From an uncultured virus (IMG/VR IMGVR_UViG_3300017814_000143) (lineage: Duplodnaviria > Heunggongvirae > Uroviricota > Caudoviricetes): a stretch of DNA of 20,000 nt. Positions 4,109 through 19,665 of this stretch are shown here, in pieces. The stretch's first letter is position 1. Every line of letters begins with the position of its first letter. Where the stretch lies: IMG/VR virus record IMGVR_UViG_3300017814_000143; one strand, written 5' to 3'. The notes under the pieces were generated by a model. It worked only from the letters and a program-made list of their open reading frames with translations. It made no database searches and was not told the origin of the DNA. The translations under genes were made by a program, and so were the position numbers.

Positions 4109-5473
4109 ATGGCCACGGACGCCTTCGACTCGCTAGCGGAGACGCTGGTTCGCGGGTCCGAGCAGAGCTACGTCGAGTACCTCACCGAACGGTTCCTCGA
4201 CATGCTCGACGAGGCCGTGACGAACCCCGACCGCCTCCAGGTGCTCGCGTCACGCTCCAGGACGGCCGCCATGGCCGCGTGGGACCGCTTCAGGGGCAAG
4301 GTGACCAAGGAGACGCAGGACGCCTTCACGGAGGCGATGCGGGGCGAGGACGAGCACCTCGTCTCGTCGCTCGCCAGGGCGTACGGCTACGACCACACCC
4401 TCACGACGAGGGCCAACAACGAGATGAACGAGGCGGCACGCGGCATGTCTGAGGTCATGCGCCGGCAGAACGTGGCGCTCGCCGACGACATGACCGATGC
4501 CTGGTACCGGGTCACGTCCGACGCCGTCACCGGCACGGAGATGGGCAAGAGCTACCGTGACGTCATGGAGGACGCCGTCTCACGCCTGTCGGACGCCGGG
4601 CTCGAGACCATCGACTACCGCTCTGGCGTGAGGACGACGATCGACGCGGCCACGCGCAGGCACGTCGTCTCGCAGGCCAACCAGGCGAGGGGCGACCTGC
4701 TCATGAGGCGGTGCGACGAGTGGGGCTGCGACCTCGTCATGGTGTCGGCGCACTTCGGGGCGCGCCCGAGCCATGCCGTGTGGCAGGGAAGGGTCTACTC
4801 ACGCTCGGGAAGGGACCCGAAGTACCCGTCGCTCGACTACGGCACCGGATACCACGGCACCGGCCCGCACGCCGCCCTGGGCGACAGGCTCTGCGGCGTG
4901 AACTGCTTGCACAGCCTCTCACCATGGGTGGAGGGCTACAGCCAGCTCCCCTCGACCGACTTCTCGGAGCAGGAGGAGCGTGTCGGCATGACGAGCGACG
5001 AGTACTACGCCGCGAGGCAGAAGCAGCGCGGCATGGAGCGCCAGGTCCGCCAGTTCAAGCGCAGGGTCGCGCTCGGACAGGAGCGCGGTCTCGACATGAC
5101 CGCCGACAGGTACCGCCTGGGACGCGCACAGGCCAGCCTGAGGGGGCATTGCAAGCAGTACGGGCTGACGCGCGACTACGAGCGCGAGCGGGCCTACGCG
5201 GTCGCAGAGCAGCCGAGGGGGCTGGGCAGGGTGGCGTTCAGCGTCGGGACCCACGCGCAGACGAGGATGGCGGAGCGCGGGATCACGGACACCCAGATCG
5301 CACAGGCGCTCAACGACCCGCTGCACGAGCTCTCCGTGACCACCGACGAGAGAGGCCACGCCAAGAAGGTGATAGGCCACGAGGTGACCGTGGTGATCAA
5401 CCCGGACACGGGTAAGATAGTCACGACGTACCCGACCGGGAAGAAGGCAAGGAGGAGGTATGGCGCTGAGTAA
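4109..5473 (+). CDS. Minor capsid protein (Phage_min_cap2/MuF-like) with C-terminal putative RNase toxin domain
   Basis: VSAHFGARPSHAVWQGRVY...LCGVNCLH and Y...QKQRGMERQVR motifs of minor capsid protein 2; last ~80 aa THAQTRMAERGIT...ALNDP...VVINPDTGKIVTTYP resemble DUF4258/colicin E5-like BECR-fold domains. Confidence 0.85.
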   Translation: MATDAFDSLAETLVRGSEQSYVEYLTERFLDMLDEAVTNPDRLQVLASRSRTAAMAAWDRFRGKVTKETQDAFTEAMRGEDEHLVSSLARAYGYDHTLTTRANNEMNEAARGMSEVMRRQNVALADDMTDAWYRVTSDAVTGTEMGKSYRDVMEDAVSRLSDAGLETIDYRSGVRTTIDAATRRHVVSQANQARGDLLMRRCDEWGCDLVMVSAHFGARPSHAVWQGRVYSRSGRDPKYPSLDYGTGYHGTGPHAALGDRLCGVNCLHSLSPWVEGYSQLPSTDFSEQEERVGMTSDEYYAARQKQRGMERQVRQFKRRVALGQERGLDMTADRYRLGRAQASLRGHCKQYGLTRDYERERAYAVAEQPRGLGRVAFSVGTHAQTRMAERGITDTQIAQALNDPLHELSVTTDERGHAKKVIGHEVTVVINPDTGKIVTTYPTGKKARRRYGAE

Positions 5474-5796: not shown

Positions 5797-6339
5797 ATGC
5801 CAGGTGCTGCATCAACCGAGGGCGAGGACGGCAAGCCCCAGGACCCCAAGGCCGGCGAGGGAGCGAGTCCCCAGGACCCGGAGCAGGACCCGAAGCCCCA
5901 GGAGGGCGCGGACGGCGAGGGCGGCAAGCCCCAGGACCCGGACACGCACGAGGGCGACGCGGTCAACCGCCACCAGTACGACCGTGACATCGAGCGCAGG
6001 GACAAGGAGATCGCGGAGCTAAGGGAGCAGGTCAAGGCCCAGAACGACGCCAAGGCCGCCTCGGGTGACGCAACCGCCAAGCTGCGCCAGGAGCTCGACG
6101 AGTTCAAGGCGCAGCTCGCGAGCGAGAAGGCCAACACGGCCCTCACCGCGGCAGGCTGCATCGACCTCGAGCTAGGGTGCGAGGCGCTTGCCAAGTTCGA
6201 CGGCGACGTGGCAAAGCTCGCGGAGGCAAAGCCGTACCTCTTCGGGGACAAGGACAGGACCATCCGATCGACAGGCGGGAAGCCTGCCGGAAGCGCCACC
6301 GGGCCCGCGAAGAGCATCCGCGACGCGCTCAGGGGCTAG
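5797..6339 (+). CDS. Capsid scaffolding protein (180 aa)
   Basis: SD GAGGAGG before ATG 5797; acidic low-complexity N-terminus with PQDP repeats, coiled coil, AKPYLF motif; directly upstream of MCP. Confidence 0.85.
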   Translation: MPGAASTEGEDGKPQDPKAGEGASPQDPEQDPKPQEGADGEGGKPQDPDTHEGDAVNRHQYDRDIERRDKEIAELREQVKAQNDAKAASGDATAKLRQELDEFKAQLASEKANTALTAAGCIDLELGCEALAKFDGDVAKLAEAKPYLFGDKDRTIRSTGGKPAGSATGPAKSIRDALRG

Positions 6340-6351
6340 AAAGGAAGACAA

Positions 6352-7245
6352 ATGGCAACCACACTCGCGGACCTCGCCGCCAACTCCCAGGACAAGCTCG
6401 TCCAGGGGTTCGTGAACGAGATCATCACCGACGACTACCTGCTCGGCGCGATGACGTTCGACGACTGCATGACGCCGAGCGGCACGTCCGACCTGACCTA
6501 CACCTACAAGCGCGTGAAGACCCCCATGACGGCCGCGTTCCGCGCCCTCGAGAGCGAGCCCGCCAAGACCGAGGTGTCCATCGAGAAGGTCACCACCAAC
6601 GTCGGCATCCTCGCGGACGCCTGGCAGATGGACCGCGTCGAGAGGGACGCCGCCGAGGACCTCTACGAGCTCAAGCTCGAGGAGTCCAAGAACGCCATCG
6701 TCCGTGCGTTCGACGCGCAGGTCGTGTCCGGCAAGAAGGGCACCAACGCCTTCGACGGCCTGGCGACCATCCTCTCGGGCACGTCCACCGAGGCGACCTC
6801 GGCAGTGGACCTCTCCACCCTCGACCAGGCCAAGTCCCTCGACTTCGCCGACGAGCTCGGGAACATGCTGTCCGTCCTCATGCGCACGCCCGACGTGCTG
6901 CTCGTGAGCAGCACCATGAAGGCCAAGCTCGACTCCATCGCCCGCCGCATCGGCATCGGCACCGCCACCGTAGAGACCGCGGGCGGCACCATCACCACCT
7001 GGGACGGCATCCCCCTGCAGCCCCTCAAGGACGGCGCGCTCACGACCAACGACATCTACGCCGTCTGCCTCGGGCTCGACGCCTTCCACGGCATCACGCT
7101 CAAGGGCGGCTCCGCCATCACCGTCACGCTCCCCGACTGGACCGCACCCGGCGCCGTCAAGTCCGGCGACTGCGAGTTCGTGTGCGGCTGCGCCCTCAAG
7201 GCCACCAAGGCCGCAGGCGTGCTGCACCCGAAGGCCGCGGCATAG
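6352..7245 (+). CDS. Major capsid protein (297 aa)
   Basis: Position, size, strongly biased codon usage, SD GAAAGGAAG; motifs MATTLADL, FDGLATIL and KAAGVL. Confidence 0.9.
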   Translation: MATTLADLAANSQDKLVQGFVNEIITDDYLLGAMTFDDCMTPSGTSDLTYTYKRVKTPMTAAFRALESEPAKTEVSIEKVTTNVGILADAWQMDRVERDAAEDLYELKLEESKNAIVRAFDAQVVSGKKGTNAFDGLATILSGTSTEATSAVDLSTLDQAKSLDFADELGNMLSVLMRTPDVLLVSSTMKAKLDSIARRIGIGTATVETAGGTITTWDGIPLQPLKDGALTTNDIYAVCLGLDAFHGITLKGGSAITVTLPDWTAPGAVKSGDCEFVCGCALKATKAAGVLHPKAAA

Positions 7246-9692: not shown

Positions 9693-10280
9693 ATGGACTG
9701 GCTCACGCGGGAGCCCCCGTCGGAGGTGGACGTTTGCGGCGAGGCCGTACCCATCCGCACGGGGTGGCGCCGAGCGGTGAGGTCCTACGTCCTCATGGGA
9801 ACGCGCTCGCGCATCCCCATTGGGGACTGCGACAAGCTGCTCTCGTCGTGGTTCTCGCGCGACGGGGTTGTGCCCCGTACCGTGCTGGGGCACCAACGCG
9901 AGGCACTCGACGCGGCACTCTCGTGGCGCGACGACGCGCTCGTCGAGGCGATGCCCTACGGGGACGGGATGTCGCGCAGAGCGACCGTCCGCGTCTTCGA
10001 CTGGGAGGCGGACTCCGGCATCGTCGTGGCCGACTTCCTGCGACTCTACGGCATCGACCTCACGGACCGCGCCACCCAGATGCACTGGTGGCGCTTCGCG
10101 CTTCTGTGGCGCGGTGCCGCGGCGAGCGAGTCGCTCGTGGCGTCGGCCATCTCGGCGCGCTCTCCCCTCGACGGGGACGTCGACAAGTGGTCGCGGAGGG
10201 CGCACGAGAGGCTCGCGGGGGCGTGGGCGTTACCGCCGACGCAGGCTGAGCTCGTCCAACGGGCGAGGGAGGCGTGGTAG
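9693..10280 (+). CDS. A118 Gp15-like tail assembly chaperone (195 aa)
   Basis: Motif FDWEADSGIVVADFLRLYGIDL...MHWWRFALL characteristic of Phage_Gp15. Confidence 0.85.
   Translation: MDWLTREPPSEVDVCGEAVPIRTGWRRAVRSYVLMGTRSRIPIGDCDKLLSSWFSRDGVVPRTVLGHQREALDAALSWRDDALVEAMPYGDGMSRRATVRVFDWEADSGIVVADFLRLYGIDLTDRATQMHWWRFALLWRGAAASESLVASAISARSPLDGDVDKWSRRAHERLAGAWALPPTQAELVQRAREAW
10227..10247 (+). promoter_or_regulatory. Putative phage late promoter, copy 5 (inside gp15-like 3' end, upstream of TMP)
   Basis: GCGTTACC-GCCGACG-CAGGCT; coincides with a rare TTA Leu codon in the overlapping gene. Confidence 0.6.
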
Positions 10281-10284
10281 GCGG

Positions 10285-12258
10285 ATGCCCAACATAGACA
10301 CAGTCAACTTCGAGATAACCGCAGACGACTCCGACTTCAAGGAGAAGCTGGGCAATCTCGGCAACGAGGCGGAGAAGGCCACGGAGAGGGCCAGCAAGGG
10401 ACTGTCGGGGATCGGGACGAAGCTCGGCGAGACCGAGGGACCCGTGACCAGACTGTTCTCCGGCATCACGGCGAAGGCCGCCGCCATGGCAGGAGTGGTG
10501 GGCGGGTTCGTCAGCACCCTCGCCACCAAGGCCATCGACGCCCTGGGGAACATCGCCTCGGAGGCCGTCACCGCATCGGACTCCACCGACAAGTTCAGGC
10601 AGACCCTGGACTTCGCGGGCGTCGACACCTCGACCATCGACGACCTCACGCAGAAGACCCAGGACTACGCGGACAAGACCGTCTACGGCCTCAGCGACAT
10701 CCGGAACATCACGGCACAGCTGGCGTCGAACGACGTGCAGGGGCCCGAGCAGCTCGCCGAGGCCCTGGGCAACGTCAACGCGGCCGCCGGTGGCACGGCG
10801 GACACGTACTCCCTCCTCGGCCTCGTGCTCACGCAGACGAACTCGGCCACCAAGCTCACCGGCGACAACTGGCGCCAGTTCTCCCAGGACGTCCCGGGCG
10901 CGGCAGGCCAGGTCAAGCAGGCACTCTCCGACATGGGCGCGTACACGGGCGACTTCGCCACCGCGATGGAGAACGGCGAGATCAGCTCGGACGAGTTCAA
11001 CCAGGCCATCATGAACCTCGGCATGACCGACGCGGCACAGCAGGCGGCGACCTCGACGCAGACCTTCGAGGGCTCCATGGGCCAGCTCCAGGCGTCGGTC
11101 GTGGGGGTTATGACGGACGGCCTCGACCTCATCAAGCCCGGGATGACGGGCTTCATCAACTCGCTGTCGAGCGGCATCGACTGGATCAGGGGCGTGCTCT
11201 CGGGCGCGTCCGGCGCCGCATCGCCGTTCGTCAGCGCGCTCTCGTCGATAGATCAGGCGTTCATGTCGGGGCTGCAGCCGGCGCTCACGTCGGTGCAGCC
11301 CCTCCTCTCTCAGCTCATGCAGCAGCTCCAGACGTTCGCAGCCGTCGTGGGCCCTCCGCTGCAGCAGGTCTTCACGGCATTGCAGCCCATGGTGGCGGCG
11401 CTCGCAAACGTCATCGGCGCGGTGCTCGGCGGGGCGATAAACGTCGCCGTCGTGTGGGTTACCGAGCTGATGGAGGGGCTGAACGTCGTGGCCTCCGTCG
11501 TGATGCCGCTCGTGTCCGCGGCCGTACAGGTGCTCGCCCCGATCTTCACTGCGGTCTTCTCGGCCATCGCGTCGATCGTGACGGCGTGCACCGAGACGGT
11601 CTCTGCCGTGTGGACGGGGGTGCTGTCGTTCCTCTCCGGGGTCCCCGGTTCCATCGAGGGCTTCTTCTCGGGCGTCGGTGACGCCATCGTGGCCTTCTTC
11701 CAGCCGCTCGTGAGCGGGGTCACGGGGATAGGCGACTCCGTTGCGAGCTACATGAGTGGGGTCCCAGGGCGCATCACGTCCGCGTTCAGCGGGATCGGTG
11801 ACACCATCGTCGACTTCTTCGCGTCCATCCCGGGAAAAATCGCCGACATGTTCGCGAACATCCACGTGCCGAGCCTGCACGTCGATGGATCGTTCAACCT
11901 CGACCCGCTCAACTTCTCCCTTCCGACCATCAGCTTCTACGCCAACGGCGCCTACGTCGACTCCCCAACCATGGGCGTCTTCGGCGAGGCCGGCGGGGAG
12001 TACCTCGTCCCGCGCGACCCCACGTACATCGGCCAGCTCGCAGGCGACATCATAGGCATGCTCGGTGGGATGGCGGCGTCCGGCAACGCCGGTGGCCCAT
12101 CGTCACAGAGCGCGGACAAGTCCGTCGTGAACGCGATAGGACGGCTCGAGGCGAGGGTCGACGCCATGGCCGGCAGGATCGTCGACGCGGTGTCGGCGGA
12201 CACGACCATGACGCTCGACCGTCGCGAGGTCGGACGCATCGTGAGGGGGCTGGCATAG
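10285..12258 (+). CDS. Tape measure protein (657 aa)
   Basis: SD GGGAGG; tape-measure domain (YADKTVYGLSDI...MENGEISSDEFNQAI), amphipathic F/W-spaced repeats, C-terminal FYANGA...GEAGGEYLVP. Confidence 0.92.
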   Translation: MPNIDTVNFEITADDSDFKEKLGNLGNEAEKATERASKGLSGIGTKLGETEGPVTRLFSGITAKAAAMAGVVGGFVSTLATKAIDALGNIASEAVTASDSTDKFRQTLDFAGVDTSTIDDLTQKTQDYADKTVYGLSDIRNITAQLASNDVQGPEQLAEALGNVNAAAGGTADTYSLLGLVLTQTNSATKLTGDNWRQFSQDVPGAAGQVKQALSDMGAYTGDFATAMENGEISSDEFNQAIMNLGMTDAAQQAATSTQTFEGSMGQLQASVVGVMTDGLDLIKPGMTGFINSLSSGIDWIRGVLSGASGAASPFVSALSSIDQAFMSGLQPALTSVQPLLSQLMQQLQTFAAVVGPPLQQVFTALQPMVAALANVIGAVLGGAINVAVVWVTELMEGLNVVASVVMPLVSAAVQVLAPIFTAVFSAIASIVTACTETVSAVWTGVLSFLSGVPGSIEGFFSGVGDAIVAFFQPLVSGVTGIGDSVASYMSGVPGRITSAFSGIGDTIVDFFASIPGKIADMFANIHVPSLHVDGSFNLDPLNFSLPTISFYANGAYVDSPTMGVFGEAGGEYLVPRDPTYIGQLAGDIIGMLGGMAASGNAGGPSSQSADKSVVNAIGRLEARVDAMAGRIVDAVSADTTMTLDRREVGRIVRGLA

Positions 12259-13092
12259 GTGGACATGACCCTGACCTACACGAACCACCTGGGAGACACA
12301 GTGACCCTCGGCGCGCCCGGCGGCCACGTCCACTACGGTGAGACCGACCTCTTCGGCCACAAGTGGAGCTACGAGCACGACGGGCAGCGCGTCTGGGGGA
12401 TGAGCCTCGACGCGCGGGAGGTCACGCTCCCGGTGTGCGAGCTCGGCGGATCGCTCGCGGAGCGCGAGGGGGTCTACCGCACGCTCGAGGCGGACGCGGA
12501 GGAGGGCGCGCGCGGCACGCTCTCGTACCACGGCTGGGAGCTCGGCGTCATCCCCATCGCCTCGTCGCTCGACCAGTGGTGGTGGGACGACGGGGTCGAG
12601 GAGAGGAGCGTGACCCTCCTCGTCCCGAGGCCGCTCTGGACGAGGGACGAGACGGTCACCTACCAGATCGCCAGGGCGGACGGGACCACCCAGCCGGGGA
12701 GCGACTACCCACGCGACTACCCCTGGGAGTACGCGCGCCCGTCGCTCGCGCACGTGGCGGTCGTGGACGCGGGGTCGGCCGAGTGGAGGTGGGTCGTCTA
12801 CGGCCCCGCGGTGGACCCGTGGGTCGTCATCGAGGGCAACCGCCACGAGGTGGACGTGACCGTCCCCTCGGGGTCGCGCCTCGAGCTCGACACGCGCGAC
12901 CGCACCATACGCATGGTGTCGGTCGACGGGGACGTCTCCAACTGCTTCCCTTCGCGCCTGCGCGGGGCCGAGGGGTCCGGCACGTACGCCTTCGCACGGC
13001 TCCCCGGCGGGCGCGTCGAGCTGCTCACCGACAACGCCTTCGCGTTCGACGTCACGGTGCACTACGAGAGGTCCGAGCCGGCATGGGCATGA
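12259..13092 (+). CDS. Distal tail protein (Dit)
   Basis: Follows TMP; LTYTNHLG, PRPLW, DYPRDYPWEY, YGPAVDP and YERSEPAW motifs. Alternative start ATG 12265. Confidence 0.85.
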   Translation: MDMTLTYTNHLGDTVTLGAPGGHVHYGETDLFGHKWSYEHDGQRVWGMSLDAREVTLPVCELGGSLAEREGVYRTLEADAEEGARGTLSYHGWELGVIPIASSLDQWWWDDGVEERSVTLLVPRPLWTRDETVTYQIARADGTTQPGSDYPRDYPWEYARPSLAHVAVVDAGSAEWRWVVYGPAVDPWVVIEGNRHEVDVTVPSGSRLELDTRDRTIRMVSVDGDVSNCFPSRLRGAEGSGTYAFARLPGGRVELLTDNAFAFDVTVHYERSEPAWA

Positions 13093-14933
13093 CCCGACAC
13101 CTCGACGTGGTGGCGACCGACGCCTCCCGCACGGACGTCGGCACGCTCCCCGGGGCCACCCTCGACCTCACCGTGGGCGACGACGGCCAGGACAACGACT
13201 TCGAGCTGACGACCCCGCTCTCCGGCTACGTCCCCCCGGCCGGGGCCCTCGTCTACGTCGACGGGACCGGGTGGGGAGGCATCGTCGACGAGCGCGAGGT
13301 CTCGACCGACTCGACGGTGGTCACCCTCTCGGGGCGCACGTGGTCGGGCGTCCTCCAGAGCCGCGTGCTGCGCCCGGACGCCGGCCAGGACTACCTGACC
13401 TACGACGGTGACGCGAATGCCATGCTCGCCGCGCTCGTGGACCGGTGCGGCCTCGGATGGCTCCTCTCGGTCCCGAAGGCCGCCTCCGGCGTCACGGTCT
13501 CCGGACGGTTCGACCGCTACTGCGACATGTGGTCGGGCATCCGCAAGGCGCTCCGCGCCTCGGGGGCGAGGCCCGACCTCTCGTGGTCGGGCACGGGGTG
13601 CGTCCTCTCCGCCGTCGCCTCGACCTCGGTCGAGCCACCCGAGGGGGAGGTGGCCATGACGGCGAGCTCCGACTCGAGACCCATCAACCACCTCGTCTGC
13701 CTCGGGCAGGGCGAGCTCTCCGCCCGCGTGGTCGTCGACCTCTACGCTGATGCCGACGGCAACGTCTCCGACACCCAGACCCTCTTCGGGGCCGACCTGC
13801 GCGAGGCAGCCTACGACTACAGCGGGGCGACCACAGACGAGCTCGCGACCGAGGGCAGGAAGAGGCTCCTGGAGCTGCAGGAGGGCTCCTCGGTCACGCT
13901 CGACATATCGGAGGTGACGGCGGCCCTGCAGGTCGGCGACCTCATCGCCGCCACGGACCCGAGGACCGGCATAGGGGCGACCTGCGAGGTCGCGCGCGTC
14001 ATCGTCAAGGTGAGGAACGCGCTGGCGACCGTCTCGTACGAGGCCGGGGCCACCACGACCACGACGAGCCTCTCCGGGTCGGCCGAGACGTCCTCCGGGG
14101 GCGTGGCCTACACCGCCGGGGACGGCATCTCCATCAGCTCGGGCACCATCTCGGCAGAGGTCACGCAGGCCAAGCTCGACGCCGTCACAAGGACCGCGGC
14201 GGACGCAGCCACGCAGGCAAGCAGCGCCGCCTCGACGGCCTCGGCCGCGCAGACGATGGCAGGCGCGGCCGTTCAGACGATCACGGCCACGTCACCCATG
14301 GCTGCCTCGCGCACCGGCAACGCCGTGAGCCTGACGCACGCGACGAGCGGCGTGGCGGCGGGCGCATACGGGCCCGCGGCGAACGCGACCCCGACGTGGG
14401 GCGGCACCGCCACCGTCGGGGCGCAGCTCTCGATAGACGCGCGCGGGCACGTGACTGGCGCCTCGGGACGCAGCGTCACGATCCCCGGCTCCGTGGCCAC
14501 GCAGACGGCCAAGGGGCTCATGTCGTCGACGGACAAGACCAAGCTCGACGGCATCACGGCCGGGGCGCAGCCGCAGGCCGTGACGTCCGTGCAGGGTCGC
14601 ACGGGGGCGGTCACGCTTGCCAAGTCAGACATCGGCCTCGGGAGCGTCGACGACACCGCGGACGCCGACAAGCACGTGGCCACGGCGGCCTCCCTCGGCA
14701 CGGCGCGCACGATCAGGCTCTCGGGCGCGGTCAGCGGCGAGGCCGCATTCGACGGGACCACGGACGTGACGATCACGTGCACGGGCGACACCGAGGCCGC
14801 GGGCTTCCTCGCGGCGCACCCCGTCGGCAGCTACCACCTCACGAGCGAGCCCGGGAACCCCGGCGTTACCTATGGCGGAACCTGGGAGTCGGCCCCGAGC
14901 GAGGGCCCGTACGCATGGCACAGGACGGCCTAG
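13089..14933 (+). CDS. Baseplate hub (ReqiPepy6 Gp37-like) with fibre-like extension (614 aa)
   Basis: ATGA overlap at 13089; NDFEL, GWGGIV, GRTWSGVL and NHLVCLGQGEL motifs; A/T/S-rich fibre repeats (GLMSSTDKTKLDGI, VTSVQGRTGAVTL); C-terminal HPVGSY...GGTW...WHRTA. Confidence 0.8.
   Translation: MTRHLDVVATDASRTDVGTLPGATLDLTVGDDGQDNDFELTTPLSGYVPPAGALVYVDGTGWGGIVDEREVSTDSTVVTLSGRTWSGVLQSRVLRPDAGQDYLTYDGDANAMLAALVDRCGLGWLLSVPKAASGVTVSGRFDRYCDMWSGIRKALRASGARPDLSWSGTGCVLSAVASTSVEPPEGEVAMTASSDSRPINHLVCLGQGELSARVVVDLYADADGNVSDTQTLFGADLREAAYDYSGATTDELATEGRKRLLELQEGSSVTLDISEVTAALQVGDLIAATDPRTGIGATCEVARVIVKVRNALATVSYEAGATTTTTSLSGSAETSSGGVAYTAGDGISISSGTISAEVTQAKLDAVTRTAADAATQASSAASTASAAQTMAGAAVQTITATSPMAASRTGNAVSLTHATSGVAAGAYGPAANATPTWGGTATVGAQLSIDARGHVTGASGRSVTIPGSVATQTAKGLMSSTDKTKLDGITAGAQPQAVTSVQGRTGAVTLAKSDIGLGSVDDTADADKHVATAASLGTARTIRLSGAVSGEAAFDGTTDVTITCTGDTEAAGFLAAHPVGSYHLTSEPGNPGVTYGGTWESAPSEGPYAWHRTA
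14863..14883 (+). promoter_or_regulatory. Putative phage late promoter, copy 6 (upstream of Zn-finger and RBP genes)
   Basis: GCGTTACC-TATGGCG-GAACCT; overlapping codons GTT and TAT are atypical for this gene. Confidence 0.6.
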
Positions 14934-14943
14934 GAGGCATTGG

Positions 14944-15186
14944 ATGGCAAAGACTGAGGGTTACTCGCAGTTCGTATGCGACCGCTGCGGGAAGACGCTG
15001 TACGCCACGAAGGACGCGCCCGAGGCGCAGAGCTGGAGGGCCGTCAGCCGCGTCACGGCGGACGGCGTCAGCATCTCGAGGCTCCTCTGCCCTGACTGCT
15101 CGGGCAGGTATCGTGAGCTCGCCCAGGCGCAGGACGTCGCCTTCGGCGACCTCATGGCCAACGGGACCACAACCACTGTCGCCTAG
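14944..15186 (+). CDS. Small CxxC...CxxC (zinc-ribbon-like) tail-region protein (80 aa)
   Basis: SD AGGAGG before ATG 14944; CDRC and CPDC. Confidence 0.75.
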   Translation: MAKTEGYSQFVCDRCGKTLYATKDAPEAQSWRAVSRVTADGVSISRLLCPDCSGRYRELAQAQDVAFGDLMANGTTTTVA

Positions 15187-15194
15187 GGGGAGTC

Positions 15195-16037
15195 ATGGCA
15201 ATCTCACTCGTCACCGGGTTCGCAGGACAAGCCCACGTCACGCCGGCACAGGACGGCGCGGGATACGCGGGCATCGTCGGCACCGGGTGCTACGTCACGA
15301 AGACCGGCAGGATGCTCGCGGCATCCATGTCGACGGCCAACAAGTGCGTCGTCTGCGACGGCGACGCCTGGATGTACGGCCGCCACGTGCGCATCGAGGC
15401 CGGGACCACGGAGGAGCTGACGGTGCAGTCGGGGTCCCAGGGCACGAAGCGCAACGACCTGGTGGTCGTGCGCTATGCCAAGGACGCGAGCACGGGCGTC
15501 GAGACGGCCTCGCTCGTGGTCGTGAAGGGCACGGCGGGGACGACCGCGACCGACCCGACCTACAGCGACGGCTCCATCCTGGACGGGACGTCGCCGGTCG
15601 ACATGCCCCTGTACCGCATCCCGATCGACGGCATCACGGCAGGGACGCCCGTCCCCCTCTTCTCGGTGCTGGCCCCGATGTCGGAGCTCCAGGATTCCAT
15701 ATCCCAGACGGGCAAGTGGCACGCCACGAGGGGCGGCGGCATCGCGGTCGTGCCCACGCGCGACTGCATCCTCGACGTCGAGCTGTCGCTGAGCAACGTG
15801 TGGGGATACACGGGAGGTGCCTTCTCGCTCGCCATCAACCTGCCGTCCGGGCTTGCCGTCCTCGCGAACACGAACGCGTACGGCTCCGGGGGCGACACCG
15901 TCGGAAGGCAGGTCACATCCAGGCTCGTCGCGTCGGGGGCCAAGGCCGGGCAGTCGTACTCCTTCTCCTACACGCTGGCCAACGGGGGAGGCTTCTCGGA
16001 CCCGATGTGGATCGCGAGGGAGCTTCCCTCGTCGTAG
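15195..16037 (+). CDS. Tail fibre/receptor-binding protein: constant N-terminus (to DSISQT) plus currently expressed variable cassette A
   Basis: N-terminal baseplate-anchor motifs (KRNDLVVVRY, LVVVKGT, MPLYRI); crossover site 1 at 15687-15709 encodes QDSISQT; 114-aa beta-rich C-terminus. Confidence 0.85.
   Translation: MAISLVTGFAGQAHVTPAQDGAGYAGIVGTGCYVTKTGRMLAASMSTANKCVVCDGDAWMYGRHVRIEAGTTEELTVQSGSQGTKRNDLVVVRYAKDASTGVETASLVVVKGTAGTTATDPTYSDGSILDGTSPVDMPLYRIPIDGITAGTPVPLFSVLAPMSELQDSISQTGKWHATRGGGIAVVPTRDCILDVELSLSNVWGYTGGAFSLAINLPSGLAVLANTNAYGSGGDTVGRQVTSRLVASGAKAGQSYSFSYTLANGGGFSDPMWIARELPSS
15687..15709 (+). repeat. Shufflon crossover site 1 (expression site)
   Basis: CTCCAGGA-TTCCATA-TCCCAGAC; 15692-15709 is a perfect 18-bp inverted repeat of 16695-16712. 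Confidence 0.9.
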
Positions 16038-16370
16038 CATTCCATATCCCGGACGCTCCTGTGGTCCGGCTCCTCGGGGAAGCTCGGCTCACTCCCGCTG
16101 TCGGCAGACCCCTCACGGTTCTCCGCCCTGGAGCTGAGGTACGTGGACGACGACGGGCTGAACCGGATGGCAGAGGTGCCGCCGTCCGGCGCCTGTGGCT
16201 TCGGCTTCACGACCACCCGGCTGGACACCGGGGTCACCTACGTCAAGTTCGTCCAGGGCTCCGTCGACGGCAGGATGCTCAATCTGGTCGGGCAGCGCGT
16301 ATGCCAGATCGGGGGGAGCGTGCAGGACATCCAGGTCGCACGGATACAGGCGGTGTACGGTGCGCTCTAG
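16038..16370 (+). other. Silent variable RBP C-terminal cassette B (110 aa, no own start)
   Basis: Frame opens at site 2: HSISRTLLWSGSSGKLGSLPLSADPSRFSALELRYVDDDG...IQAVYGAL*; LLWSG...L..D.S.F..LE...I..VYG pattern resembles phage fibre tips. Confidence 0.8.
16039..16055 (+). repeat. Shufflon crossover site 2 (internal; left arm degenerate)
   Basis: ATTCCATATCCCGGACG, 16/17 identical to 15694-15710, same orientation and same reading frame. Confidence 0.88.
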
Positions 16371-16711
16371 CTCGCCACGGCGAAGGCGCACTGCCCGACG
16401 ATCCAACGCCACTCATCCGGCTGAGCGCGCTGGATGATCCATGAGACCGTCACCGAGCCATCGTCCGTGACGGTCAGAGCTGCCGCCCCATCACCTGTCG
16501 ACGCGCCCTTGGCGGTGGCCACGAGGATTGCCGAACTCGACCATGGCCTGCACCCCGCCGGTAAGGTACAGATGACATCGCCGAGGGCTATGTAGAACGA
16601 TTTGAGGGCCGCAAGCTCAAGGACGCAGAGACTGCCGGCACGCGTGACCCTGGCAGTGCCGGCCCACCCACTGACTATCGGAACGTCGACGGCAGTCTGG
16701 GATATGGAATC
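16367..16711 (-). other. Silent variable RBP C-terminal cassette C (114 aa, inverted)
   Basis: Frame from site 3: DSISQTAVDVPIVSGW...ICTLPAGCRP...AFAVAS*; LPxGxRP motif typical of RBP head domains; stop shares CTAG 16367-16370 with cassette B. Confidence 0.85.
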
Positions 16712-16717
16712 CCGGAC
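16695..16717 (-). repeat. Shufflon crossover site 3 (recombinase-proximal, inverted)
   Basis: On the - strand GTCCGGGA-TTCCATA-TCCCAGAC: 8-bp arms (7/8 palindromic) around a 7-bp asymmetric core; 1 bp from the recombinase stop codon. Confidence 0.9.
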
Positions 16718-16718
16718 A

Positions 16719-17597
16719 TCACTCGAGCAGATACGCGTCAAGCCTGCGGGCGGCGTCCTTGGAGACGGACTTGCCGCTCCAGAAGTAGTGCTCCCGCAGC
16801 ATGGACGAGCTCTCCGTGTGCCCGAGCTGCTCCTTTATGACGGCCTCGGGGACACCTGCCCCTATCGCGAGGTAGACGTAGGTGTGCCGAAGGTACATCG
16901 GGGGCACGTAGGGCAGGCCCTCGCGCGTGCAATGGGCCCGGTAGCGTCTGGCAATCGCATCGGGGCTCATGCGCGCGCCATGACCGTCCGGCACGAGCGG
17001 TCCCGTGCCGCGAATCTCCCGCAGACGGCGCGTCGCGGTCCTGGGCATGTAGACCGTCCTCACCGAGCTCGGCGTCTTGGTGAACCACTCGACCGGCTCG
17101 CCTCCGACTACCTGGAGCCCCTTGTCGACCCGTACCCCGCCCTCGCGGAGGTCGATGTCGCGCCACCACAGCGCGCACCCCTCGCACCTCCGCAGCCCGC
17201 AGGTGAGTGACACGAGGAGCCACGGCTCCAGGGGGTGGCCCCAGAAGCCGCGCAGGAGCCTTCGCGCCTGGTCGGCGTCAAGGAACCTCGGCACGTATGG
17301 CGCCCTCCTCCTCGGCAGAGCTATCGACTTGCGGCACGGGTCCACCGCGATCAGGTCGTCGCGCTCCGCCATGCGCAGGATCCTCTGCAGGCATGACTTG
17401 GCGTTCGCCGCCTGGGCGTGGGTCATCGGGGCGAGCCATGCCTCTATGTCGCGGGCCCGTATCTCGGACAGCTCGGCGTCACCCCAGCGAGGCAGGACGT
17501 GGTTGGCGTAGTCGCTCGCGTACCCCGCGAGCGTGGACGGGGCGAGCCCTGTCTTGGTGGGCCAATAGAAGGTCTCCGCATAGTCCCCTAGGCGCAT
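16719..17597 (-). CDS. Tyrosine recombinase, probable shufflon invertase (292 aa)
   Basis: SD GGAGG; SAM-like core-binding N-terminus; catalytic motifs GLRRCE (R), TKT (K), YLRHT, QLGH and EHY (Y); no arm-binding domain; abuts site 3. Confidence 0.92.
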   Translation of the reverse strand: MRLGDYAETFYWPTKTGLAPSTLAGYASDYANHVLPRWGDAELSEIRARDIEAWLAPMTHAQAANAKSCLQRILRMAERDDLIAVDPCRKSIALPRRRAPYVPRFLDADQARRLLRGFWGHPLEPWLLVSLTCGLRRCEGCALWWRDIDLREGGVRVDKGLQVVGGEPVEWFTKTPSSVRTVYMPRTATRRLREIRGTGPLVPDGHGARMSPDAIARRYRAHCTREGLPYVPPMYLRHTYVYLAIGAGVPEAVIKEQLGHTESSSMLREHYFWSGKSVSKDAARRLDAYLLE

Positions 17598-17608
17598 CTC
17601 GTACCTCC

Positions 17609-17657
17609 GAATCCTAGATGCCTCTCAGGGCCTCCCCCTGGGACGGCACTAGGATTC
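17609..17657. promoter_or_regulatory. 49-nt imperfect inverted repeat between recombinase and lysis genes
   Basis: GAATCCTAG-A-TGCC-TCTCAGGG-CCTCC-CCCTGGGA-C-GGCA-CTAGGATTC. Confidence 0.75.
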
Positions 17658-17661
17658 TCCC

Positions 17662-17682
17662 GCGTTACCGCCGTCGCACGAT
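17662..17682 (+). promoter_or_regulatory. Putative phage late promoter, copy 7 (lysis cassette)
   Basis: GCGTTACC-GCCGTCG-CACGAT, with SD AAGGAGG 11 nt downstream. Confidence 0.65.
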
Positions 17683-17705
17683 CGGGTCGACCAAGGAGGT
17701 GAGAA

Positions 17706-17744
17706 GTGGACGACACCGCCAAGAAGCTCGTGTGCAGGAGGTAG
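17706..17744 (+). CDS. 12-codon leader mini-ORF MDDTAKKLVCRR
   Basis: SD AAGGAGGT 17693-17700, GTG start, TAG stop; its last codons form the SD of the next gene; copy of that gene's N-terminus. Confidence 0.5.
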   Translation: MDDTAKKLVCRR

Positions 17745-17746
17745 AC

Positions 17747-18193
17747 GTGGACGACACGGCAAGGAGGCTCCTGTGGTGGGGCCTGACGGCGGGCGTCGGG
17801 TACTGCGCCAGCGCATACGTCGCCTGCGGCAACCCGCGCCAGGACGCGCTCGCCGTCACGTGGATGGCCGTGCTCCTCGTCTCCGCCCTCGCCTACGCGC
17901 TGTGGCGCACGACCGCCCGCAGGCGTGCCGAGGAGGCCCGCATGCACGCGGAGATAGTGGCGCGGCTGGACTCGGTGGACGAGAGGCAGCGCCTCATGCT
18001 CGACGCCCAGCAGCAGACCATGCGCTCGGATATCGTGCACAAGGTGGACAAGTACGTCTCGCGCGGGTGGGTGACCCCCGAGGAGCACAGGGCGATATCG
18101 GACGAGTACGGCTCGTACTCCGCCCTCGGCATCAACGGCTACATCAAGGTCTACATCGCGAAGGTCGACGCGCTCGAGGTACGCGAGGTCTGA
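17747..18193 (+). CDS. Lysis-region membrane protein, holin-associated (148 aa)
   Basis: SD AGGAGG 17736-17741, GTG 17747; two N-terminal hydrophobic segments, coiled coil, C-terminal Y..YSALGING motif common in genes beside phage lysins. Confidence 0.75.
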   Translation: MDDTARRLLWWGLTAGVGYCASAYVACGNPRQDALAVTWMAVLLVSALAYALWRTTARRRAEEARMHAEIVARLDSVDERQRLMLDAQQQTMRSDIVHKVDKYVSRGWVTPEEHRAISDEYGSYSALGINGYIKVYIAKVDALEVREV

Positions 18194-18232
18194 CGCCAAC
18201 CGGCACCGCGGTCGCGCCACACGGGAGCGGCC

Positions 18233-18668: not shown

Positions 18669-18770
18669 ATGGCGGACCCGACGGACGACGAGAGGAAGGA
18701 AATCGAGGCTCAGGACAGCACGGACGGGCCTGCCGACGCCCAGGAGCCGAAGGAGGTCAAGTATGAGTAA
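18669..18770 (+). CDS. Small acidic protein (33 aa)
   Basis: SD AAGGAGG, ATG 18669, MADPTDDERKEIEAQDSTDGPADAQEPKEVKYE*; 8-nt overlap with the endolysin start. Confidence 0.6.
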   Translation: MADPTDDERKEIEAQDSTDGPADAQEPKEVKYE

Positions 18771-19665
18771 CTGCGCGAGCGACGTGCTGTCCATCGCGGC
18801 TGGCGAGATCGGCTACGACCGGCACGACGACCCCGACGAGGGGAGCAAGTACGGCCGCTACTATGCCGGCGTGACCGGTTCCCCGTACTTCGGGACCACG
18901 GGCGTCCCGTACTGCGCCATGTTCGTCTCGTGGTGCTTCGCGCAGGCAGGGGCGAGCTGCGCCGGACTCCCCGCAGCGAGCAGCAGGACGCTCTACAACG
19001 ACGCCAAGGCAGCAGGACGCCTCAGGGCGTCCGTGCGTGACGCCCAGCCGGGGGACGTGATGCTGTTCGACTGGTCCCGCGCAGGAGACGACGGTGACGG
19101 CGACCCCGTCAACCTCGACCACACGTGCCTGTGCGAGATGAACCTCGGCGGGGACGGCGTGCAGACCATCGAGGGCAACATCGCCAACGGCAAGGTGCTC
19201 CGTCGTGTGCGCGACTGGTCCTACTGTGTCGCAGCGATCGCGCCCGACTACGCCACGCTACCCGACGTGCCATCCACGCCGAGCACCGAAAGCGTAGGCA
19301 GCCTCGACGGCGAGAGCGGCGAGCTGCTGGTCGATGGTGACTACGGTTCTATAACCGTCAAGGACGTCCAGAGGACCATGCAGTTCTACGGGCTCTACCA
19401 GGGATACCTGATCGATGGCGACTTCGCGTACCACGCCAAGCTTGCGTTGCAGCAGTATCTCCAGCGCAAGGGCTACTACCAGGGATATCTCCTCGATGGT
19501 GACTTCTCCGGTCACTCGGTGTACGCGTTGCAAAGCTATCTCAAGGACCTCGGTTACTATTGGTACACGGCCGATGGAATTCGCTATTGGTGCGACCTCG
19601 ACTCAGACTGGGGCGAGTACACCACCAAGGCTTTTCAGCGTGCTCTGAACAGCGAAAAGTTCTAG
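18763..19665 (+). CDS. Endolysin: CHAP peptidase/amidase plus peptidoglycan-binding repeats (300 aa)
   Basis: PYCAMFVSWC (catalytic Cys), DHT (His), QTIEGN; four DGD(Y/F)/DSDW...LQ repeats of PG_binding_1 type; SD AAGGAGG. Confidence 0.92.
   Translation: MSNCASDVLSIAAGEIGYDRHDDPDEGSKYGRYYAGVTGSPYFGTTGVPYCAMFVSWCFAQAGASCAGLPAASSRTLYNDAKAAGRLRASVRDAQPGDVMLFDWSRAGDDGDGDPVNLDHTCLCEMNLGGDGVQTIEGNIANGKVLRRVRDWSYCVAAIAPDYATLPDVPSTPSTESVGSLDGESGELLVDGDYGSITVKDVQRTMQFYGLYQGYLIDGDFAYHAKLALQQYLQRKGYYQGYLLDGDFSGHSVYALQSYLKDLGYYWYTADGIRYWCDLDSDWGEYTTKAFQRALNSEKF

Follow-up and report, generated by a model that had tools for sequence, protein, structure and literature searches.

A probable Rin-type shufflon of receptor-binding heads in the tail module of a high-GC siphophage

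Receptor-binding protein gene, cassettes and crossover sites

A 20,000-nucleotide stretch of the uncultured virus IMGVR_UViG_3300017814_000143 (IMG/VR; Caudoviricetes), hereafter the window, was analysed with the focus on positions 15195-17597, where a gene for a small receptor-binding protein, two silent C-terminal cassettes and a tyrosine recombinase gene form a putative Rin-type shufflon. The receptor-binding protein gene (15195-16037, plus strand, 280 codons) consists of a constant N-terminal part, Rc (15195..15692, plus strand, codons 1-166), and cassette A (15693..16037, plus strand, 114 codons and stop), the tip expressed in the window arrangement. Cassette B (16038..16370, plus strand, 110 codons and stop) is an open frame that is silent in the window. 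Cassette C (16367..16711, minus strand, 114 codons and stop), also silent, lies tail to tail with B on a CTAG. None of the three cassettes has a start codon at its head. The recombinase gene (16719..17597, minus strand, 292 codons) encodes a putative Rin-type invertase and adjoins the third crossover site.

The 16-mer ATTCCATATCCCRGAC is present in three copies, at 15694-15709 (plus), 16039-16054 (plus) and 16695-16710 (minus), and no further copy was found elsewhere in the window at up to two mismatches. The chance expectation was 0.02, and three or more matches occurred in none of 200 dinucleotide-preserving shuffles, so the triplet is not due to chance. Crossover site 1 (rix1, 15694..15709, plus) lies in the reading frame of the receptor-binding protein gene and encodes DSISQT. 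Crossover site 2 (rix2, 16039..16054, plus) begins 1 base past the stop of cassette A and has G at position 13, and crossover site 3 (rix3, 16695..16710, minus) is an inverted copy. Sites 1 and 3 are part of a longer imperfect inverted repeat, 15688-15709 / 16695-16716 (22 nt, 95% complementary). All sites read ATTCCATATCCC(A/G)GAC, with the 12 bases of ATTCCATATCCC common to them, and are asymmetric.

Each site copy opens a start-less frame of 110-114 codons in one register. The frame from 16038 (plus) reads HSISRT, then 104 codons to a TAG at 16368-16370, and the frame from 16711 (minus) reads DSISQT, then 108 codons to a stop at 16369-16367; the stops of B and C therefore overlap on CTAG 16367-16370. 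An initial annotation, made from the sequence alone, had described the three site copies, the in-gene position of site 1, the start-less frames in one register and the convergence of B and C on a common CTAG, and all of these were confirmed by the pattern search, the shuffles and the translated frames. Its placement of the recombinase stop codon 1 bp from site 3 was in error: 8 bases separate the stop codon (16719-16721) from the 16-mer, and 2 bases separate it from the end of the longer repeat.

Constant part and tips of the receptor-binding protein

Rc was assigned from PHROG matches, an AlphaFold2 (AF2) model and Foldseek searches. Residues 1-173 matched phrog_9994 and phrog_13141, covering only the N-terminal halves of both families, and the match therefore ends at site 1. 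In the AF2 model of the fusion of Rc with B (Rc-B), residues 30-165 had block predicted local distance difference test scores (pLDDT) of 72-88. The best Foldseek match of Rc was the receptor-binding protein of lactococcal phage p2 (E 2.3e-3), followed by that of phage 1358 (E 4.4e-2), whose entries 4l92/4l9b gave E 0.04-0.09 with probabilities of 0.95-0.98. No match reached E 0.001, and taken by itself the fold link is weak.

Cassettes A and C are receptor-binding head domains, A by sequence and C by model and fold search. Residues 176-273, in cassette A, belong to Pfam PF21454 (MSP1_barrel, E 2.9e-10), and A also matches PDB 5e7t_G, 'Major structural protein 1', the receptor-binding head of Tuc2009 (E 2.9e-11). 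A profile search with cassette C collected 73 small relatives. Its alignment A4 took 6 of 18 HMMER hits, and large proteins resembling composition matches were omitted (e.g. one of 6485 residues with nine stretches). The AF2 model of C, built on 55 alignment rows, is an eight-stranded all-beta domain with a pLDDT of 84.3 and a predicted template modelling score (pTM) of 0.79. By Foldseek it resembles the receptor-binding protein of TP901-1 (4hep_A, E 3.4e-4, template modelling score (TM) 0.70; 3ejc, TM 0.72), and also gp15 of Listeria phage PSA and the receptor-binding protein head of phage p2. The C profile searched against PDB sequences found 30yz_W, 'receptor-binding protein', at E 6.7e-4. 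A word-based search for C among longer proteins gave 1725 candidates and no homologue. Pfam gave no family for B or C. Of the 55 members of the C alignment, 54 were without a family as well, and the FlaA match of the remaining one (E 0.009) was rejected as chance level.

Cassette B has a relative, 39% identical over 77 residues (E 1.7e-8), in a Bifidobacterium imperatoris prophage (locus L005); the relative is likewise a silent cassette, located between the Rc and recombinase genes of that prophage and directly preceded by a site-like sequence. The B part of Rc-B gave 117 candidates in a word-based homologue search, none significant, and the pair of B sequences compared with the C family by hhalign gave a probability of 0.1%. 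The Rc-B protein is found letter for letter in the ESM Atlas. In the language-model structure given there, the fold of the B part is close to that of C-terminal regions in BppU-type baseplate proteins (TM 0.85 by query); we treat this resemblance as no more than a lead. The cassettes A, B and C are mutually unrelated beyond the residues encoded by the sites.

Tyrosine recombinase

The protein encoded at 16719-17597 matched PF00589 (E 2.6e-9, residues 126-266) and phrog_1 (E 2.7e-43). The PF00589 match bears out the tyrosine type given in the initial annotation. Its SAM-like core-binding domain starts at residue 4, leaving no room for an arm-binding domain. The protein could be aligned to XerD (1a0p) over residues 16-265 and has a XerD-like two-domain layout. 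R136, K174, R237, H260 and Y271 are invariant across the recombinase and its homologues in Siphoviridae sp. ctl617 and Bifidobacterium phage PMBT6; these residues are taken to be the catalytic ones of the tyrosine recombinase family. A serine recombinase of the resolvase/invertase type was not found, and the sole recombinase at the locus is of the tyrosine type. No second integrase was found in the window, which extends from terminase to endolysin.

Predicted arrangements

The locus is proposed to be a Rin-type shufflon in a siphophage tail module, with a probability of about 0.9. The small receptor-binding protein would consist of the constant 166-residue shoulder, Rc, and an exchangeable head of about 110 residues, of which three (A, B and C) would be stored as start-less cassettes, each preceded by an asymmetric ATTCCATATCCC(A/G)GAC site. 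The recombinase is predicted to pair two sites of inverted orientation, exchange strands in the 12 shared bases and invert the intervening DNA. Two units would be movable, one made up of cassette A and the left half of site 2 and the other of the tail-to-tail pair of B and C, so that only four arrangements would be possible: S1 with Rc-A and B next (the window), S2 with Rc-A and C next, S3 with Rc-B, and S4 with Rc-C. Each arrangement would be one inversion away from two others. The expected outcome is a phage population with three alternative tips, probably three receptor specificities.

Rearranged forms in public assemblies

Public runs were compared with the window over positions 14500-18200. 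Record 9 of run X5 (6640 bp, depth 18.2) contains 14500-15693, then 16039-16710, then 16038 to 15710 inverted, then 16695-18200. The order in this contig is Rc, site, B forward, C reversed, site, A reversed, site, recombinase, with 12, 18 and 12 letters fitting either side at the three joints. What appears as a skip of 345 in X5 marks the joint between Rc and B; nothing has been deleted, since A follows later in that contig. A search with the recombinase led to an IMG/VR contig (L002, also L037 and L038) in which the order is the same and the identity 99.5-100%, and its fused Rc-B gene is an open frame of 276 codons. Partial contigs of this form were found in record 12 of run X7 and in L170 and L171; cassette A is inverted beside the recombinase in X5, X7, L002 and L170. 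The initial annotation had predicted a second inversion through site 2 that expresses B, and its product was thus recovered whole, in X5 and in L002/L037/L038.

The joints fall at 15693 to 16039, at 15710/16695 and at 16038/16710 (opposite strands), all inside the 12 shared bases. Between the window and L002 the left flanks (Rc, the A end and the recombinase side) are kept intact while their partners change, and the A/G at position 13 of the site always accompanies its cassette. Strand exchange is therefore placed inside ATTCCATATCCC, probably in a central overlap of these 12 bases.

A mixture of arrangements was apparent in run X1, where contigs break at every site (14500-15709, 15692-16050, 16021-16068, 16039-16710 and 16699-17776; 8 of 17 records listed). 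Four overhangs carry the exact partner flanks for the junctions rin/A, A-end/C, rin/B and Rc/C, and at least S1, S2 and S4 are therefore present in one sample. The 48-bp contig across A-end/B had a depth of 19.7, compared with 42.3 and 38.5 in its neighbours; as contig depths are rough, this half depth is an indication only. X1 may be the source sample of the window and is then not independent for the sequence itself, but its extra junctions are still new information. Further signs of mixing are the viral contigs L001 and L023, which stop at site 1 (15705 and 15709). The nearest record, G001, also reaches only to site 1. Altogether, S1 and S3 are seen in whole contigs and S2 and S4 in junction fragments. 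At least 155 loci were returned by pattern scans of viral and metagenome collections; 8 of these (on 6 contigs) were window-like and 147 were lone chance matches.

The different arrangements could be explained as fixed strain differences, left by rare past recombination in a switch that is no longer active. X5, X7 and L002 would fit this explanation, as each shows a single arrangement in a long contig; rare variants are lost from contigs, and mixing would therefore not be visible in these samples. In X1, three arrangements or more are present together, with contigs broken at every site, and contig L048 follows the S1 order and then passes across site 3 into the inverted A end, a junction of another state. 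The cassettes and their flanks are 99.5-100% identical across states, and the recombinase gene is uninterrupted and retains its conserved residues. Fixed differences are for these reasons considered quite unlikely.

Misjoining by metagenome assemblers at a short inverted repeat could also produce alternative junctions, and one 2285-bp metagenome contig (L059) is plainly such a mixed walk. Logan contigs are built from 31-mers. The repeat here is 16-22 bases, shorter than the 31-letter words of the run index, and is therefore spanned by unique flanks. Contigs from different pipelines and samples (X5, X7, L002, L170 and L171) repeat the same three joints, and the rearranged gene retains its open 276-codon frame, which leaves an assembly artefact extremely improbable as the source of the junctions. 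L059 was not used as evidence for any state: positions 1-1123 are unrelated to the window, and the remainder passes three junctions and is bounded on either side by recombinase flanks. A mixed population, assembled into a chimera, is the probable source of this contig.

The sites might instead serve mainly for the capture of tip cassettes from other phages. The relative of B in the B. imperatoris locus is 39% identical while the constant parts are 57% identical, and the lack of relation among the three cassettes points the same way. Every rearranged form observed, on the other hand, holds the same three cassettes, only reordered and inverted, and capture as the main role of the sites is accordingly given hardly any credence. 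On an evolutionary time scale, exchange between phages may contribute to the system, but the present data are not explained by it.

A relative in run X9, aligned over 14762-16027 with 40 differing letters and three gaps, has an A-type tip and a change in site 1 (15708 A>G). After 16027 it turns to unrelated sequence and may lack the other cassettes, and it is uninformative on switching.

A within-genome switch of three tips agrees best with the rearranged forms, and several observations weigh against it. The first histidine of the HxxR motif is replaced by methionine in the recombinase (arginine in both homologues). All junction evidence comes from assembled contigs, from which the rates and shares of the states are not derivable. 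The Rc/C junction is represented only by the 8-letter overhang of one short X1 contig; this overhang nevertheless supports the inversion between sites 1 and 3 that the initial annotation had proposed for the expression of C. Cassette B, in turn, was modelled with a block pLDDT of 28-44 in Rc-B (12-row alignment), and searches with B against PDB and Pfam gave no match (best E 1.3 for the B profile against PDB sequences). The expectation that the silent cassettes would model as receptor-binding protein-like domains thus held for C, with its TP901-1-like fold; B can be called no more than a candidate head domain. Catalysis of the inversions by the recombinase 16719-17597 is considered likely, and the tips would be expected to differ in receptor or host range.

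Homologous loci

Rc matched five phage records and the recombinase 415, and the top two were identical in both lists. These were Siphoviridae sp. ctl617 (OY725605; Rc 44.0% and recombinase 43.5% identity) and Bifidobacterium phage PMBT6 (MK932884; 39.9% and 40.3%), while the next-best recombinase match was 30.3% identical. Both records have the order small Cys4 protein, Rc with an internal site, cassette ORFs (open reading frames), inverted 'integrase' and lysis genes, and annotate the genes only as 'hypothetical protein' and 'integrase'. The window has the same gene order, including the upstream Cys4 protein, and its site 1 lies in the corresponding peptide, DSISQT here and DSVTQT in the homologues of PMBT6 and ctl617. 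The sites themselves differ. In ctl617, ATTCCGTAACCCAGAC is found in Rc and there are seven sites in all, and PMBT6 has three direct sites with the core TTCCGTAACCC and one degenerate inverted site. The window core, TTCCATATCCC, agrees with TTCCGTAACCC at 9 of 11 positions.

An alignment-based scan with Rc (one genome per species) gave 13 loci with Rc identities of 39-57%, of which 11 were titled Bifidobacterium (nine species), one was a Coriobacteriaceae metagenome-assembled genome (MAG) and one a Collinsella MAG. The recombinase is 38-44% identical to the genes neighbouring Rc in Bifidobacterium phages and prophages, and the window is in this way akin to Rin loci. Among the 11 loci L005-L015, a downstream recombinase homologue was found in five and the site pattern in eight; three of the Rc loci are cut by contig ends. 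Neither a recombinase homologue nor the site pattern was found in L008 and L010, and in L015 a recombinase homologue was likewise absent and the site pattern matched once, downstream. TTCCGTAACCC is present in PMBT6, ctl617 and nine genome loci (L006, L007, L009, L011-L014, L016 and L017), and L012 has an additional variant copy of the site. Two other searches were negative: distant-mode blastn of 15000-17700 against the phage collection gave no match, and a scan of genome contigs with the single recombinase protein gave 22 pattern stretches and no relatives.

Some of these loci are of interest in themselves. The single site copy of L015 (Bifidobacterium merycicum DSM 6492), at position 5882, is an exact TTCCATATCCC located 72 bases past the stop of the homologous gene. 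No recombinase homologue is found within 5 kb and no internal site is recognisable, and this copy may be a relic. Around position 7112 of the B. imperatoris locus, another site variant, TTCGCTAACCC, which was missed by the search pattern, precedes the B-like silent cassette. In Bifidobacterium pongonis (L013, 2308-3142) the match of the recombinase homologue is split into two pieces that overlap (residues 1-168 and 153-284), pointing to a frameshift or an error in sequencing. Two short contigs of 241-242 bp from Bifidobacterium pullorum subsp. saeculare An836 (L016 and L017) join the Rc end to two other cassettes of L006, so this isolate assembly holds three alternative junctions.

Comparison with known systems

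In the shufflon of plasmid R64, the tyrosine recombinase Rci inverts segments at asymmetric sites and thereby swaps the C-terminus of PilV. One arm of the R64 sites is conserved and the other is variable, and the product is an adhesin of the conjugative pilus and not a phage protein. The sites of the window are similar to these: TCCCRGAC, the arm on the cassette side, is constant, and the opposite side varies. Tail-fibre C-termini, and with them host range, are swapped by the invertases Gin of phage Mu, Cin of P1 and Min of p15B, as summarised in the available part of PMC6109161. These are serine invertases, in contrast to the tyrosine recombinase found here.

The closest precedent, and one already named in the initial annotation, is the Rin shufflon of the dnaJ2-integrated prophages Bb423phi1, Bl157phi1 and Bl30698phi1 of Bifidobacterium breve and Bifidobacterium longum (Mavrich et al. 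2018, PMC6109161). According to the available parts of that paper, Rin is a tyrosine invertase without an arm-binding domain and distinct from the prophage's own integrase. A constant part of 168 residues, related to the receptor-binding protein of lactococcal phage 1358, is joined to start-less tips of 95-100 residues that are similar to TP901-1-like receptor-binding protein heads and mutually dissimilar (PMC6109161). An asymmetric 11-base site, TTCCCTAACCC, precedes every tip, one copy lying inside the gene and another past its stop, and inversions were seen between prophages, in virion reads and in genome reads (PMC6109161). In the same parts of the paper, recombinase-dependent inversion and a change of host range are not shown for the Rin systems (PMC6109161).

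Set against this description (PMC6109161), the window fits very well. An arm-domain-less tyrosine invertase lies beside the cassettes, the constant part has 166 residues, the dissimilar heads of 110-114 residues are start-less, each cassette is preceded by a site, the first lying in the gene and the second just past its stop, and inversions at the sites are visible in sequence data, here in contigs. The published Rin phages were compared by description, and kinship was examined through PMBT6 and the other Bifidobacterium loci (nine species). Differences from the published systems (PMC6109161) are the site, where TTCCATATCCC and TTCCCTAACCC are alike at 9 of 11 positions and differ at 2, the number of tips (three cassettes, compared with five possible full-length receptor-binding protein alleles, Rc-Rv1 to Rc-Rv5, in Bb423phi1), and the origin, which is a genome of 69% guanine-cytosine (GC) content from bioreactor and wastewater metagenomes instead of human gut isolates.

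A Rin shufflon with the repeat ttccgtat has also been described in clade 1 prophages of Eggerthella lenta (PMC8778435). As far as the available text goes, it too combines a tyrosine recombinase with small tandem cassettes and has sites inside and after a large gene; TTCCATAT of the window agrees with the repeat at 7 of 8 positions (PMC8778435). The E. lenta cassettes often carry H-type lectin domains (PMC8778435), and the likeness is set by description only. A further study lists tail-fibre genes among the families enriched for programmed inversions, and the part available makes no mention of Rin or Bifidobacterium (PMC9881135). The matches listed in a literature search for the 11-base core were, by title, from unrelated fields.

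The window shows every Rin feature that can be tested at sequence level and differs in the site core, in the recombinase (about 40% identity) and in GC content and habitat. We regard it as a member of the published Rin shufflon family, diverged and active, and not as a new kind (PMC6109161, PMC8778435, as far as available). The suggestion in the initial annotation that the site sequence and host context may be undescribed therefore stands for the exact site sequence and the habitat and falls for the system itself. Where the TTCCGTAACCC core of PMBT6 and ctl617 is replaced by TTCCATATCCC, the site and the recombinase might have diverged together. We tentatively suggest, with somewhat less than even confidence, that this co-diverged pair (about 40% recombinase identity, TTCCATATCCC) is orthogonal to the TTCCGTAACCC systems and operates a four-state, three-tip switch, with at least three states in one sample, in an actinobacterial engineered-water phage of 69% GC, outside the animal gut.

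The Rin design of a tyrosine invertase and start-less receptor-binding heads, earlier described from human-gut Bifidobacterium and Eggerthella prophages, would accordingly extend to a high-GC phage of bioreactor and wastewater metagenomes. With three sites, four states and three tips, the system is a very small and fully enumerable example, and public assemblies already contain its rearranged forms. Together, the diverged site and the recombinase of about 40% identity offer a natural pair for studies of how sites are read and of why such enzymes invert DNA without deleting it. There is also a lesson for annotation, as phage contigs of this kind break or misjoin at the sites (L001, L023, L048 and L059) and silent cassettes are called as small orphan genes.

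Genome setting and neighbouring features

The window covers the structural and lysis half of a siphophage. A large terminase (1010-2689) is followed by minor capsid protein 2 (4109-5473), a Gp15-like protein located between this gene and the tape measure, the tape measure protein itself (9820-12258), minor tail proteins (12259-14933) and, beyond the shufflon, a CHAP endolysin (18763-19665). The stretch or a part of it was present in public runs amounting to 15 rows from 11 studies, with at least half of its words in 8 rows, and these runs are bioreactor and wastewater metagenomes. A terminase fragment searched against phages gave no match, and the host is therefore not inferable from the terminase. 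Six phage-database matches were obtained for the endolysin, four to Actinomyces phage records, one to a Bifidobacterium phage and one to an unassigned phage. These matches fit an actinobacterial host, no proof being claimed.

Directly upstream of Rc lies the gene for the small Cys4 protein (14944-15186, phrog_28750), which has 80 residues with two CxxC pairs. Homologues were found in the corresponding place in 9 of 15 other loci searched (E up to 1e-2), including L010 and L015. As no recombinase was found in the latter two, the Cys4 protein travels with the receptor-binding protein and not with the invertase.

A scan for promoter and terminator consensus sequences over 14800-17900 gave none of either. 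Between the start codon of the recombinase (17597) and the next plus-strand genes, a stem-loop was found at 17609-17657. Its arms, GAATCCTAG and CTAGGATTC, pair perfectly over 9 bases around a second GC-rich helix. The 106-nt stretch containing it folds at -51.2 kcal/mol (z -4.85), and none of 200 shuffles folded as well. It was not called a terminator because it has no T run; its role may be to insulate the late operon, or it may serve as an operator of the recombinase gene.

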